Positions 22,769 through 28,110 of a stretch of 64,000 nucleotides of DNA are shown here, one piece after another. Position 1 is the first letter of the stretch. Each line of letters starts with the position of its first letter. The DNA lies in contig MGXH01000058.1 in the NCBI GenBank assembly GCA_001801305.1, forward strand, positions 961 to 64,960, read 5' to 3'. This DNA is from Gammaproteobacteria bacterium GWE2_42_36. GTDB taxonomy: Bacteria; Pseudomonadota; Gammaproteobacteria; UBA12402. The notes under the pieces are model-generated. The model saw only the letters and a program-made list of their open reading frames with translations, searched no databases and was not told the origin of the DNA. A program made the position numbers and the translations under genes.

Positions 22769-22848
22769 GTTTTATCAAGCAAAATTCTCTCGCGGGACAC
22801 CGCCGGGGCCTTTGACTTTACCATCGCGAGCAATATGCTGTTTCTTCT

Positions 22849-23358
22849 TTAAGGTAATCTTGTAAGTCGTGTAATGATTGATTGATATCTTGGATATTCC
22901 TGAATCAAAACGTCTCTCTTTGCTAATTCGAAATCACAAAATTCAAATCCGGGAGAAACATAACAGCTCGAGAGGACGTGTGAGTCGGGTTCGTTTACTT
23001 CCGCCGCAAACCATAGTCCTGCGGGAATAGTCACCTGGAAAGCGGCATCTTGATGGGTCATGGGGTTTCCAAGTTTTTTGGTAATCAATTCTCCTTTAGA
23101 GGGCAACACGTGAATGGATAGCGTTCCCCCATGATGATAGAGCCACGTTTCATCGGAATTGATTTTATGAAACATGCTGAAATTTCCCGCCCCAAGAAAA
23201 TAGTAGATACCTGTTGCGCAACAACGGGTATCACTTTCAAATCGTTTTGGAGGAATGATGGTATCTGGAGAGCGATAAATTTCTTTATAGTAACCTCCTT
23301 CAGGATGCTGTCGAAGCTGTAATGTTTTTATGATTTGTTGGATCGTTTCTTTTGACAT
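22849..23358 (-). CDS. Cupin-fold protein (DUF985-like)
   Basis: The 169-aa ORF has beta-barrel-like motifs around HHGGTLSIHVL. Confidence 0.55.
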   Translation of the reverse strand: MSKETIQQIIKTLQLRQHPEGGYYKEIYRSPDTIIPPKRFESDTRCCATGIYYFLGAGNFSMFHKINSDETWLYHHGGTLSIHVLPSKGELITKKLGNPMTHQDAAFQVTIPAGLWFAAEVNEPDSHVLSSCYVSPGFEFCDFELAKRDVLIQEYPRYQSIITRLTRLP

Positions 23359-23615
23359 AGCGGTGCTCCAATTATTTAAACAAATCGATCAGGATAAACC
23401 AGTTTTTATTTTGAGTGGTGGTGCGCCTCATGTTTTTCAAAGGGTATCCTTATTGTCGGCGATAATCGCATAATAACAAGTGTCTTGAAAGACCTAGAAC
23501 GCTCTGGACTTTCAAGTTTAAATAGCTTGCTAAATCGATTTTAAATAATGGCAACCCTATTTGTCATGAATTATACTTATAAGTAAGCTAAAAAGATGGG
23601 TAGGGGTGTAAGAAA

Positions 23616-25454
23616 ATGCAAGATAGACCAGTTCAGATAGATAGTGGTAACTGTTTATTCGATGCTTTTAGTGCGGCATTACAACAAGCGGGATACACAG
23701 GCGAGGGTCCAATCACCAGTGCAGCATTACGTGAGCAAGCGGTTGTTGCAATGAAGGATGGCGGTATATTTATAGAGCCGCTTCTATCGGCGATAGAAAC
23801 TTATATTCAATGTCATGATCCAGCTTATAGAGATGATACTCATTTTCTTTGTCATAAACATATTCGAATCTTTGCAGAAGCTGTTCCAGCTTTGTGTTTG
23901 CAACAGAATCCTTTAGAGCAAACGAAGTGGCTAAGAAAGCTGGTGAGGGATTTTTGGTTATTGGGAGGCGATCGTTCAGGGTTTGCTTTATACAAAGGTG
24001 GATTAATGCTTCCGGCGGAAGTTCGCTGTAGTAGAGTATGTAGTGCTAATGAGCGCTTATTGTTGCAGCAAGAGAGAGACCCGCACGAAGCGCGTTGGGG
24101 AAGTGAGATCGAGTTGGATATTTTAGGAAAATTATTCGGCATAAATATTGATGTTGAAGATCGACGGGCTCAGGACCAAAGAGCGACATATAATTATGGC
24201 GCTAATTATGGAGAAGTTAGCGGACTAACTTCTGAGGATATAAAAGCATTAACGGTAAGAAATATTATTTCAGCGGAAAATGGACGTTATTATATTAAGA
24301 TGCAGGATTGGAGCGAGCTAAGGCAACGTTTAGGTGTAATACAGGATATAGAGGGGGTTAACGCATGGATATATGGGGAGCTACAGGCTGATCTCAAAAA
24401 TCATTTAATTAGCAGCTCAGCAGATCCTCGTACTTTGAAAATCCTACTTTCTTTGAAAGATAGGGGTATTTTAGGGGTTGTGTCTTATAATCAATATAAA
24501 TTTGTGACAGACCAGCCTGATCATATTGACGTCGCTGCCATCGCAGAACGGACGGGGCCTGTTCGTTCTGAGCTTTATGACAAAGTGTTATTAGCCTATA
24601 AACCCCCAAGGGCAAAAGTGCTGTTAATCCATTATCCTGGGCATTGGGCGTTTGGAGGCGTTATCCAATCTTACTCGGGTCCAGCGCCGGGCGCTGCGCC
24701 ATCAGCTGCCCCTATCTCGGCGCTACCTGCCCACGCAGCGCCCGATGCAGCCTCATCTTCACCCCCGCCATTACCAACCCCACCGCCACCCCCCATCTCG
24801 CCGCCTGCTCCACCTATGCCTGATGCAACCATCCAGCAACCATCATCGCCACCCCCGCCGCCTCCATCACCACCGCCCGTCCCGATACCACTCACCCCAC
24901 CACCTCCTGTTGTCACCCCTGCCTCGCCGCCACCTGCACCATCACCGCTGGCATCACCCGTTGTACCTGCGTCGCCACCACCATTTGCGCCTTTGTCTCC
25001 AACGGAAATTAGGACATTAGCCGAAGTCAATAGTCGCTTGGACCTCTATAAAAATGGGTTATTAAAACGAACAATTGATCTAGAGTGTCAAAAGAAAGCA
25101 AAAAAGGATCGAAAGAAAGACATTGGCGAAGAAACCAAAGAAATAAACTTAATAGGGAAAAAAGTAGATTTTATTAATCGCGCACAGAAGGCCTTAAATG
25201 GTGCGGGCCCTATTTCTAATAGAATAGATGCGTTTACACAGGTAGCAAAGGAGGCAATAGATGATCATTCTATGAATATGCATAGAGATAAAAGCTTTAA
25301 GTGGCTTTTTAGAAAAATTCTTTGGGGGATTACAAAAGTATTTTGTAGTAAGAGGGTTTTTGGTTTTTTTGATAAGACAAGGGGAGTGAGAGAGCTTACT
25401 GAAGATCAAGATATTTTATGCAAGGCAAGATCTAGTATTTCTATGGGCGGTTAA
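23616..25454 (+). CDS. OTU-family deubiquitinase-like protein with a long intra-domain insertion and a proline-rich region (effector candidate)
   Basis: Cys box IDSGNCLFDAF (Cys codon 23652-23654) and His box VLLIHYPGHWAF (His codon 24642-24644, compare OTUB1 LLYRPGHYDIL). About 325 aa separate the two boxes. A 120-aa Pro-rich tract and a basic C-terminal domain follow. Confidence 0.7.
   Translation: MQDRPVQIDSGNCLFDAFSAALQQAGYTGEGPITSAALREQAVVAMKDGGIFIEPLLSAIETYIQCHDPAYRDDTHFLCHKHIRIFAEAVPALCLQQNPLEQTKWLRKLVRDFWLLGGDRSGFALYKGGLMLPAEVRCSRVCSANERLLLQQERDPHEARWGSEIELDILGKLFGINIDVEDRRAQDQRATYNYGANYGEVSGLTSEDIKALTVRNIISAENGRYYIKMQDWSELRQRLGVIQDIEGVNAWIYGELQADLKNHLISSSADPRTLKILLSLKDRGILGVVSYNQYKFVTDQPDHIDVAAIAERTGPVRSELYDKVLLAYKPPRAKVLLIHYPGHWAFGGVIQSYSGPAPGAAPSAAPISALPAHAAPDAASSSPPPLPTPPPPPISPPAPPMPDATIQQPSSPPPPPPSPPPVPIPLTPPPPVVTPASPPPAPSPLASPVVPASPPPFAPLSPTEIRTLAEVNSRLDLYKNGLLKRTIDLECQKKAKKDRKKDIGEETKEINLIGKKVDFINRAQKALNGAGPISNRIDAFTQVAKEAIDDHSMNMHRDKSFKWLFRKILWGITKVFCSKRVFGFFDKTRGVRELTEDQDILCKARSSISMGG
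24666..25026 (+). repeat. Low-complexity, GC-rich proline-rich coding tract (PPPP/PPxP imperfect repeats)
   Basis: Translation SAAPISALPAHAAPDAASSSPPPLPTPPPPPISPPAPPMP...ASPPPFAPLSP. Confidence 0.85.
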
Positions 25455-25512
25455 AAACGCTATTACGCCATGATTTTTAAACTTTAATGCCGTGAGCAGA
25501 TAGGAAATGTAA

Positions 25513-26494: not shown

Positions 26495-26509
26495 AAGAAG
26501 GTTTGTATT

Positions 26510-26884
26510 ATGTTGTTAAAAAAATCCAACGACGTTGTGAAGCAAGCTATTACAGCAGATGGTTTTGCTGGAGCGTACAATCGTTATTTGTTAATTAAAG
26601 AAGATGGCTGTCCAAATTATGCTTTAAGATTATCCGAGATTGAGTCTGGTGGTCATACTTCTTATCATGCGCACGAAGAAGAGCATGAATATTATTTTTT
26701 AGAGGGAAAGGGAGTGGTGGTTGATCATCATAAAGTTGAGCATATAGTAGAACCTGGTGATGCAGTTTATATTCCACAAAAGCAAAAACACCAGGTGAAA
26801 AATACGGGAGAAAGTGTTTTGAAATTTATTTGTACAATTCCTATTTTTAAAGAGGGTGATGGGAAGTCCACTAGGCTTGTCTAA
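26510..26884 (+). CDS. Cupin 2 domain protein
   Basis: GGHTSYHAHEEEHEYYFLEGKG ... PGDAVYIPQKQKHQVKN matches the cupin metal-binding motifs. Confidence 0.7.
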   Translation: MLLKKSNDVVKQAITADGFAGAYNRYLLIKEDGCPNYALRLSEIESGGHTSYHAHEEEHEYYFLEGKGVVVDHHKVEHIVEPGDAVYIPQKQKHQVKNTGESVLKFICTIPIFKEGDGKSTRLV

Positions 26885-27048
26885 TAAACCGACATATTGC
26901 TTTTTCAGAGGGAATGACTAAAGAACAGCTTAATAATAGTTAAATGGCTACTGGCGTAAAATAGGGGTTTCGCACATAAAGTAGGTTTAGGAATTGACAG
27001 TTTAGGCGAAATTAAAATTTTGTATGAAATTAAATACAGGCCTTTTGT

Positions 27049-27936
27049 ATGAAACAGTTATTATTTATTGGTGGGACTGCATTTTTTGGAAAGCAAGCGC
27101 TAAATAAACTCATTATTTCTGGAGATTATCATATTACCGTGCTGACAAGAGGTAATATTTGTCCGGAAGAGTTTAAAAAGCATGTTAAATTTATTTGTTG
27201 CGATAGATCCGACAGACAAGCTCTTAAAGCAACATTAAAAGGGCAACACTTTGATATTGTAGTTGATAATATTGCTCGAACAGCCTCAGACGTGAGAAAC
27301 GTTTTAGATATTTTTAGAGGAAAGATAGAACATTATTTACTTTGCTCGTCGGGTGCAGTTTACCCAAGATTTTTACCTCATGAATGGTCTGAAGAAGAAG
27401 CTGTGTTCGAACCAATCACCGGACAAAGAGAATACGCTAATAATAAACGTGAAGCAGAGTCTACATTAGTAAGTTATCGTGATGTCCCTTATACGATCTA
27501 TCGACCAACGGTTGTTGAAGGTCCAGAAGACAGCACAAAACGGATATCGTATTTTATAGAAAAAATAGACAAACAAAAACCATTTGATATTCCTGCAGAA
27601 GTTTTATTTAAACATGTCTACTCAGGTGATGTCGCAAATGCAATTGTTGCATTAGTTGCTCTAGGCCCTACAAATAAAGCGTACAATATTTGCGGTGATG
27701 ATAAAATTACTTTAGAAGAATATTGTTTTAAAATTGCCGAAATTCTTGGAAGAATTCCTTGCCATAGACTAGTTCCCGTGGAAAATTTCTTAGCGTTAGA
27801 TCATGGAAACTTTCCAAGTTCATACGATCGCACACTGATCTTATCTAATGCTTTACTTAAAAGCACCATTCCTTTTCATCCAACGTCTATTAACTTTTGG
27901 CTACCAATCACCGTTCGCTGGGGGGTATATATTTAG
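27049..27936 (+). CDS. NAD(P)-dependent epimerase/dehydratase family (extended SDR) protein
   Basis: N-terminal Rossmann motif LLFIGGTAFFGKQALNKLI and a YxxxK-type motif (YANNKRE). Confidence 0.75.
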   Translation: MKQLLFIGGTAFFGKQALNKLIISGDYHITVLTRGNICPEEFKKHVKFICCDRSDRQALKATLKGQHFDIVVDNIARTASDVRNVLDIFRGKIEHYLLCSSGAVYPRFLPHEWSEEEAVFEPITGQREYANNKREAESTLVSYRDVPYTIYRPTVVEGPEDSTKRISYFIEKIDKQKPFDIPAEVLFKHVYSGDVANAIVALVALGPTNKAYNICGDDKITLEEYCFKIAEILGRIPCHRLVPVENFLALDHGNFPSSYDRTLILSNALLKSTIPFHPTSINFWLPITVRWGVYI

Positions 27937-28110
27937 CTGATAAAATAGTCATTCCATAAGTGCACGCTGTTTCACGATTATAAAAAGCGATCATAAATTT
28001 AATTCCACTTCAAAAAAATAAAATCATAATAGAGGCCATTATGTCTAAACGTATTGGAATAATTGAGTTTAGAAAGACAAGTGGTAACTGATTGATTTAA
28101 CTGGAACAAT

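Follow-up and report, generated by a model that had tools for sequence, protein, structure and literature searches.

What occupies the 5.3 kb between two arginine tRNA genes whose 3' ends face each other in an uncultured gammaproteobacterium, and how does this interval change? The DNA analysed here (the window) is a stretch of 64,000 nucleotides (nt) of contig MGXH01000058.1, from the metagenome-assembled genome (MAG) "Gammaproteobacteria bacterium GWE2_42_36" of the Rifle aquifer. ARAGORN located three tRNA genes within this DNA, in agreement with the Rfam tRNA matches. The inward-facing 3' ends of the two tRNA-Arg genes enclosed six small open reading frames (ORFs). Core genes lay on both sides, namely bamB, der, truA, tsaB and the gene of a YoaA/DinG-type helicase (yoaA) on the left and gyrA, cmk and rpsA on the right, and the remainder of the window was chiefly housekeeping (KdpA, RlmN, HisS, IscS, HldE and MutS). 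A first-pass annotation, made from the letters alone, had described non-core genes bounded by tRNAs and flanked by core genes as an accessory island. This arrangement was confirmed by ARAGORN, Rfam and Pfam, with the right tRNA one base shorter on each side than the 28111-28189 given there. The interval is probably a tRNA-anchored plasticity zone, a fixed address at which cargo has repeatedly been gained, swapped and lost. Its features, and the segments into which the comparison with a sister species divided it, are listed below.

22463-22555, plus strand: tRNA-Ser(GCU), which opens the left tRNA operon (ARAGORN; Rfam tRNA, 58 bits); sister copy at L179 1596-1688
22556-22691, plus strand: tRNA-Ser/tRNA-Arg spacer of 136 nt, which holds a 21-nt copy of the tRNA-Arg 5' end; predicted four-way junction
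22692-22768, plus strand: tRNA-Arg(ACG), the left anchor, 3' end toward the island (ARAGORN, Rfam)
22849-23358, minus strand: Cupin_5 (DUF985) protein, 169 amino acids (aa) (Pfam PF06172, E 3e-44)
23616-25454, plus strand: OTU-like cysteine protease, predicted, 612 aa (Pfam OTU, PF02338, 21.5 bits; motifs)
25513-26250, plus strand: Peptidase_C80-like protein (clan CD), putative, 245 aa (Pfam PF11713, 25.1 bits)
26255-26494, plus strand: DUF6506 remnant, 5'-truncated, the "tiny ORF" of the first-pass annotation (Pfam profile positions 31-89 of 96)
26510-26884, plus strand: Cupin_2 protein, 124 aa (Pfam PF07883, E 6e-15; GC content at third codon positions, GC3, 0.272)
27049-27936, plus strand: protein of the short-chain dehydrogenase/reductase (SDR)/NAD-dependent epimerase family, 295 aa (Pfam PF01370, E 1e-20; GC3 0.236); segment C
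28112-28188, minus strand: tRNA-Arg(UCG), the right anchor, 3' end toward the island, with gyrA next (ARAGORN, Rfam)
22779-26268: cargo segment A (Cupin_5, OTU, C80-like), absent from the sister contigs L178-L184 by blastn and tblastn
26269-26922, plus strand: segment B (truncated DUF6506 and Cupin_2), the sole cargo common to the sister species

The reality of the two borders was established by six independent metagenome assemblies from different samples and assemblers, including one 212-kb scaffold, which matched both of them at 99.7-100%. Mis-assembly of unrelated contigs at conserved tRNA genes was excluded because these assemblies span both borders. It might have been suspected because the short-read contigs of strain variants break at this locus and a Logan contig of the sister species ends in both tRNA-Arg genes, but it now retains practically no probability.

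The reference relative, MAG GWF2_41_13, is a sister species that also comes from the Rifle aquifer. Its YoaA and GyrA were 94% and 95% identical in amino acids to those of the window; core DNA was ~80-85% identical, and the core synonymous divergence (dS) was 0.86-0.89. Its locus was rebuilt from overlapping contigs. L179 bears the sister tRNA-Ser and tRNA-Arg(ACG), the Logan contig L178/L184 (23,111 bp) begins within tRNA-Arg(ACG) and ends within tRNA-Arg(UCG), and L182 (a 43.8-kb scaffold) overlaps at 100% the head of L098, which runs on into tRNA-Arg(UCG), gyrA, cmk and rpsA. On the left, homology with the window extended from 22412 to 22778 and thus stopped 10 nt beyond the 3' end of tRNA-Arg(ACG); on the right, it resumed at 28110, the 3' end of tRNA-Arg(UCG). 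Between the same two tRNAs, the sister carried ~23 kb of cargo different from the 5.3 kb found here, with only 26269-26922 common to both species:

L179 2124-3478 and L182 1-16662: sister cargo

In order, this cargo comprised a fragment of a type I restriction-modification (RM) S-subunit gene (hsdS), RhuM (PADLOC PDC-S05), two small ORFs, an Asp/Glu racemase, TauE, an intact DUF6506 protein of 102 aa, Cupin_2, a SnoaL-like protein, two NUDIX proteins and an operon of seven large proteins, followed by tRNA-Arg(UCG) and gyrA. The place of segment A was taken by the hsdS fragment, RhuM, racemase and TauE. No GWF2_41_13 member was present in the 90% protein clusters of Cupin_5 and the C80-like protein, and the SDR gene of segment C was not found at the sister locus. 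The seven operon proteins measured 616, 1308, 275, 474, 1577, 655 and 628 aa. The 1577-aa protein contained DUF6603 and was the only member with a Pfam match, and the 655-aa protein had a metallo-beta-lactamase (MBL) domain like the N-termini of LmuA and Avs; this operon could represent a defence or toxin system not described before. Gene order was therefore not conserved in the sister, and the presence of the same two tRNA anchors around different cargo in two species supports the accessory island. A simple insertion between yoaA and gyrA was rejected, since the sister yoaA adjoins accB/accC and the sister tRNA-Ser adjoins fhs.

Composition also set the interval apart. The GC content of the island was 0.403 (0.385 without the Pro-rich stretch of the OTU gene) versus 0.426 in the rest of the window, which taken alone is unremarkable, but its k-mer signature is exceptional. 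The tetranucleotide L1 distance between the island and the rest of the window was 0.260, against a sliding-window mean of 0.163 (standard deviation 0.030), and none of the 118 windows reached the island value. The dinucleotide delta* of the island was 118, compared with 52 ± 22, and fell in the top 1.7% of windows. The island is thus the most compositionally deviant 5.3 kb in the window, and this result, together with the different sister cargo, bore out the accessory character proposed in the first-pass annotation. Among 55 ORFs, the lowest GC3 belonged to the SDR gene, followed by Cupin_2, and the codon-usage distances of the OTU and C80 genes were high for their length. If the neighbourhood were ancestral and vertically inherited, the differences would reflect scrambling and loss in reduced host-associated genomes and the composition would reflect low expression. 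The breaks in synteny between the two species elsewhere would fit this account, as would other stretches of the window with similarly low GC and the fact that four of the six genes belong to ordinary enzyme families. It is nevertheless very improbable: the island is extreme in k-mer and dinucleotide signature beyond GC, the sister keeps both tRNA anchors with entirely different cargo, the DNA shared by the two species is younger than their split, and conspecific strains differ in content, as described below.

The junction between segments A and B showed how the present cargo was assembled. The homology of segment B (654 nt) begins at 26269, inside DUF6506. The window copy of this gene lacks ~28 N-terminal codons, whereas the sister copy is intact, which places the junction at ~26262-26269. 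The truncation at the junction indicates that a Cupin_5-OTU-C80 block became fused with a DUF6506-Cupin_2 block already in place, and that this event cut DUF6506. The cargo as a whole is a mosaic with three or more pieces. Segment B was 94.3% identical in nucleotides to the sister, whereas none of 290 equally long core windows exceeded 89.1%, and the dS of Cupin_2 was 0.30, a third of that of the core genes. The similarity of segment B and of the tRNA-Ser/tRNA-Arg spacer (see below) points to DNA exchange between the species after their split. An inversion between the two tRNA-Arg genes was also considered; it was rejected because the shared segment lies in the same orientation in both species and the longest identical run between the tRNAs is ~15 nt. 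The 17-nt extension of the inverted tRNA-Arg repeat beyond the tRNA ends showed weak similarity only.

With regard to mobility, no integrase domain was found in any ORF of the window, as the first-pass annotation had stated, and no mobility genes were present in the window. Neither tRNA 3' end had a second copy in the window (three mismatches or fewer), and no repeats of the attachment (att) type were found at the borders. A search of a plasmid database returned tRNA matches only. These results bear on a second explanation, in which two decayed integrase-type islands, one at each tRNA-Arg 3' end, came to abut, later lost their integrases and att sites, and now decay passively. In its favour, each tRNA-Arg points its 3' end at the cargo, with neither homology break more than 10 nt from such an end; the type I RM S-subunit fragment and RhuM/PDC-S05 beside tRNA-Arg(ACG) in the sister look like island debris, and the atypical composition fits as well. 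However, neither an integrase nor a direct repeat of the tRNA 3' ends is present in the window, and passive decay leaves two things unexplained: the shared segment and the spacer are 94-100% similar against 80-89% in the core, and recombinant OTU alleles show sharp transitions of identity. This explanation is rather unlikely; it bears on how the locus arose and can coexist with a plasticity zone as a description of its present dynamics.

Conspecific strains showed the locus in four allelic states, represented by the window, L093-L096, L097 and L185. Of these, L093-L096 came from the same samples; their yoaA and tRNA genes were ~100% identical in nucleotides to the window, and Cupin_5 was 95-100% identical. 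Identity fell to 45-70% over the whole OTU gene (~23650-25500) and returned to 96-99% in the C80 gene, and the OTU domain was 49% identical in amino acids. The result is a pair of OTU alleles ~50% identical within flanks that are 96-100% identical. At the protein level, Cupin_5 was 91-96% identical in the strain variants. In the L093 variant, an IS3-family transposase (rve C-terminus) broke the C80 gene after about codon 175, and this insertion sequence (IS) copy probably accounts for the contigs that end there:

L094 3087-3437, minus strand, and L093 about 5320-5576: IS3-family transposase in the strain variant

In L097, the OTU protein was 89% identical in amino acids, DUF6506 was broken, Cupin_2 was deleted and the SDR gene lacked its first 42 codons. 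In L185 (937-2449), the OTU gene was split into ORFs of 79 and 404 aa and was recombinant, with an N-terminal domain of the L093 class and a C-terminal region that matched the window class at 95-100%; the crossover lay in the Pro-rich linker. The first-pass annotation had taken the island, which lacks an integrase, to be probably old or fixed. The divergent OTU alleles, the recombinant split allele, the IS3 insertion and the deletion affecting Cupin_2 and SDR show that it is neither.

Under the plasticity-zone reading, present turnover would proceed chiefly by homologous recombination on conserved flanks, for which the tRNA operon, Cupin_5, the C80 gene and the C-terminal region of OTU are candidates, with contributions from illegitimate deletion and IS activity. 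Exchange would take place between related lineages that co-occur in the aquifer. If the cargo first entered at the tRNA 3' ends through an integrase, neither that integrase nor att repeats have been left behind. The functionally interesting cargo would be the OTU-C80 protease pair. OTU, C80, truncated DUF6506 and Cupin_2 lie on one strand with gaps of 58, 4 and 15 nt, and their co-transcription is likely because the gaps are short. A scan for promoters and terminators gave matches at chance level.

The OTU-like protein was treated as an expanded, Lot-like OTU protease with predicted activity. Residues 1-352 constitute an expanded OTU domain with putative catalytic residues Cys13 (codon 23652-23654) and His343 (codon 24642-24644), followed by the Pro-rich linker (about 24678-24995) and a conserved C-terminal region (24996-25451). 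The motifs D9-S-G-N-C13-L-F(DAF) and HYPGH343W were conserved in the intact alleles, and W161GSEIEL was invariant. The C-terminal region contained a hydrophobic, basic stretch and might have a role in membrane targeting or secretion. An exhaustive search of 1.84e9 representative proteins returned eight relatives, three of them close. Two distant relatives had OTU matches, one of them together with ankyrin repeats, and the weak relative P0129 passed the Pfam OTU cut-off with 26.8 bits. Searches of the Protein Data Bank (PDB) with single sequences gave nothing useful. When a profile of the family was used, the top PDB match was Legionella LotA (7w54, E 0.007), aligned at the Cys, WG..L and His-Trp motifs, followed by viral OTUs and OTUD2. 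Foldseek with the predicted model of the OTU domain returned almost exclusively OTUs, but the matches were weak (best E 0.06). NCBIfam returned nothing above its cut-offs, and PADLOC had no match for the OTU or C80 proteins.

The nearest known system is that of the Legionella Lot deubiquitinases (LotA/Lpg2248, LotB and LotC). In common with these enzymes, the protein has a DxGNCLF Cys loop, a central WG..EL motif and a C-terminal His-aromatic motif, as well as an enlarged all-helical insertion after the Cys loop, and it comes from a bacterium, a probably host-associated gammaproteobacterium. The Lot class is defined by the length of its helical lobe, 178-210 aa, compared with 50-60 in classical OTUs and 110-120 in otubains (PMC7690952). 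The lobe predicted here is intermediate, longer than in classical OTUs and otubains and shorter than that of the Lots, at ~145 residues modelled as helices H13-H159, and the protein further differs from the Lots in an extra insertion of ~160 aa that separates the central motif from the His loop, in the Pro-rich linker and in the unique C-terminal region. It is a near orphan, and its similarity to LotA is marginal. It is read here as a probable deubiquitinase aimed at a eukaryotic host.

The OTU gene also stood out in how it has diverged. Between the window and L097 (438-2186), 59 nonsynonymous and 7 synonymous differences were counted, which in this pairwise estimate from a single pair of alleles gave a nonsynonymous divergence (dN) of 0.045, a dS of 0.018 and a ratio of 2.6 (Nei-Gojobori; one-sided Fisher p = 0.0075). 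For the OTU domain alone, the counts were 42 and 4 and the ratio was 3.1 (p = 0.013). For the same pair, dN/dS was 0.38 in C80 and 0.68 in SDR, with the dS of C80 ten-fold that of OTU, and core genes had values of 0.03-0.06. These figures are suggestive of diversifying selection on OTU but are not proof of it, and the excess of amino acid changes points to an arms race at a host interface. They hint that positive selection acts on a gene of effector type in this uncultured groundwater bacterium.

The neighbouring C80-like gene appears to encode a small clan-CD protease. The Pfam match covered positions 50-150 of the 154 in the profile. The putative catalytic residues are His77-Gly78 (25741-25743) and Cys113 (25849-25851); in an AlphaFold2 (AF2) model of low confidence (pLDDT 53), His77-Gly78 follows the strand 70-77 and Cys113 ends the strand 104-113. 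With this poor model, Foldseek placed TcdB/TcdA at ranks 1, 3, 6 and 10, with a best E of 0.008, which was not significant. The likeness is to the C80 cysteine protease domains (CPD) of MARTX and large clostridial toxins: the Pfam match spans the His-Gly/Cys region, and the predicted layout of strand and His, strand and Cys would fit clan CD. Unlike those domains, which are parts of giant toxins, the protein here stands alone with 245 aa, and its score is marginal. The effector content of eukaryotic type proposed in the first-pass annotation may hold in part. The OTU assignment is supported by the motifs and the marginal LotA profile match, the C80 assignment was marginal and the other four genes encode ordinary small enzymes.

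The left anchor had a further peculiarity. The first-pass annotation had reported a 5' pseudo-fragment of tRNA-Arg at the left border. Such a copy exists at 22563-22583, where 20 of 21 nt match 22690-22710, but it lies in the spacer upstream of the intact tRNA-Arg(ACG), outside the island, and is not a border scar. Its candidacy as an insertion scar of the present cargo was rejected, as it is upstream of the tRNA and unchanged in the sister despite the different cargo there. In gammaproteobacteria, tRNA-Ser(GCU)-tRNA-Arg(ACG) operons can carry tandem Arg copies, for example serV-argVYZQ of E. coli. The gene order is the same here, and decay of a tandem Arg gene would leave a 21-nt copy of this kind, which makes a decayed tandem tRNA-Arg copy the plainest origin by analogy. 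Unlike in serV-argVYZQ, the remnant sits within a stably folding spacer that is identical (136/136) between species ~80-85% identical in core DNA. The predicted fold is a cloverleaf-like four-way junction with a free energy of -46.5 kcal/mol and a z-score of -3.65, and none of 200 shuffled sequences was as stable. The spacer of the conspecific variant L093 had three differences from the window, all neutral with respect to the structure (a G-U pair, a loop and an internal loop). The Rfam search of the spacer yielded no family. The spacer may act as a tRNA-derived RNA, or it may be a footprint of recombination.

When these elements are combined, the locus could be read more strongly as a dedicated exchange site for host-interaction and defence cassettes, which aquifer lineages living side by side would swap through homologous recombination. 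It would be anchored by an ultra-conserved tRNA operon with a structured, tRNA-derived spacer RNA, and the near-orphan OTU would be a positively selected arms-race effector with highly divergent alleles that recombine, a case of a deubiquitinase diversifying by alleles in an uncultured symbiont. This extended version is doubtful and is offered tentatively. The plasticity zone itself resembles known tRNA-associated islands and plasticity zones, such as pathogenicity islands and the chlamydial plasticity zone, in which cargo at tRNA 3' ends has atypical composition and variable content; genes of virulence type and of defence type occur here as well. It differs from typical tRNA islands in having no integrase, att repeats or mobility genes in the window, in being bounded by two inverted tRNA-Arg isoacceptor genes, and in a turnover that apparently proceeds by homologous and illegitimate recombination, including between species.

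Several points weigh against the plasticity-zone reading or against the role given to its cargo. An empty site, with tRNA-Arg facing tRNA-Arg and nothing between, was not seen in the relatives compared. The comparison rests on one sister species, the other relatives being distant (gyrA at most 69% identical). Among the matches listed, ~160 gammaproteobacterial gyrA loci of 55-69% identity, including 79 other metagenome loci, had no tRNA-Arg(UCG), yoaA or island gene next to gyrA, and those on the scanned genome contigs had no tsaB near it; such distant loci are uninformative for the synteny of this island. Because the two genomes are rearranged at many places (yoaA/accB, fhs/tRNA-Ser and the break after rpsA at 33511), breaks in synteny alone are weak evidence. 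The similarity of the spacer could come from functional constraint and not from exchange. With respect to the cargo, the Pfam OTU score is marginal and below the gathering cut-off of 23.3 bits, the C80 score barely passed its cut-off of 23.8 bits, so that both family assignments are marginal by Pfam, the dN/dS of OTU comes from one pair of alleles, and no secretion system was found in the window.

Variable islands anchored at tRNA genes and bacterial OTU deubiquitinases are both well known, and the category is not new. Here, metagenome contigs alone yielded borders at base-pair resolution, a rebuilt sister locus and a series of alleles within a population, comprising intact, divergent, recombinant, split, IS-disrupted and deleted forms. 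The near-orphan OTU protein would broaden the known sequence diversity of OTU enzymes in bacteria and, if active, would mark the lineage as associated with a eukaryotic host. No mention of either MAG, GWE2_42_36 or GWF2_41_13, was found in the literature.

Some minor observations concern the relatives and the remaining parts of the window. The lineage next in closeness (YoaA 58% identical) has giant ankyrin/leucine-rich repeat (LRR) proteins (L090 12016-20166) after yoaA, a hint that members of the wider clade live in association with eukaryotic hosts. Synteny with the sister stopped just past rpsA (window 33511; L098 from 6795), and the two genomes were rearranged every few kilobases. An isolated 44-nt match (89%) linked the intergenic window positions 59863-59906 to L179 1104-1147, in a small ORF upstream of the sister tRNA-Ser, and could represent either a small repeat or the remains of a rearrangement. 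Other possibly accessory genes of the window were those at 2336-4801 (an 821-aa HEAT-repeat protein), 10687-12174 (a 495-aa LamG-domain protein) and 49829-51163 (a 444-aa protein with no Pfam match and a GC content of 0.371). Finally, gyrA directly precedes and overlaps cmk (window 30894-30949), whereas the two genes are 3-9 kb apart in 80 other gammaproteobacteria; the overlap fits a reduced genome.

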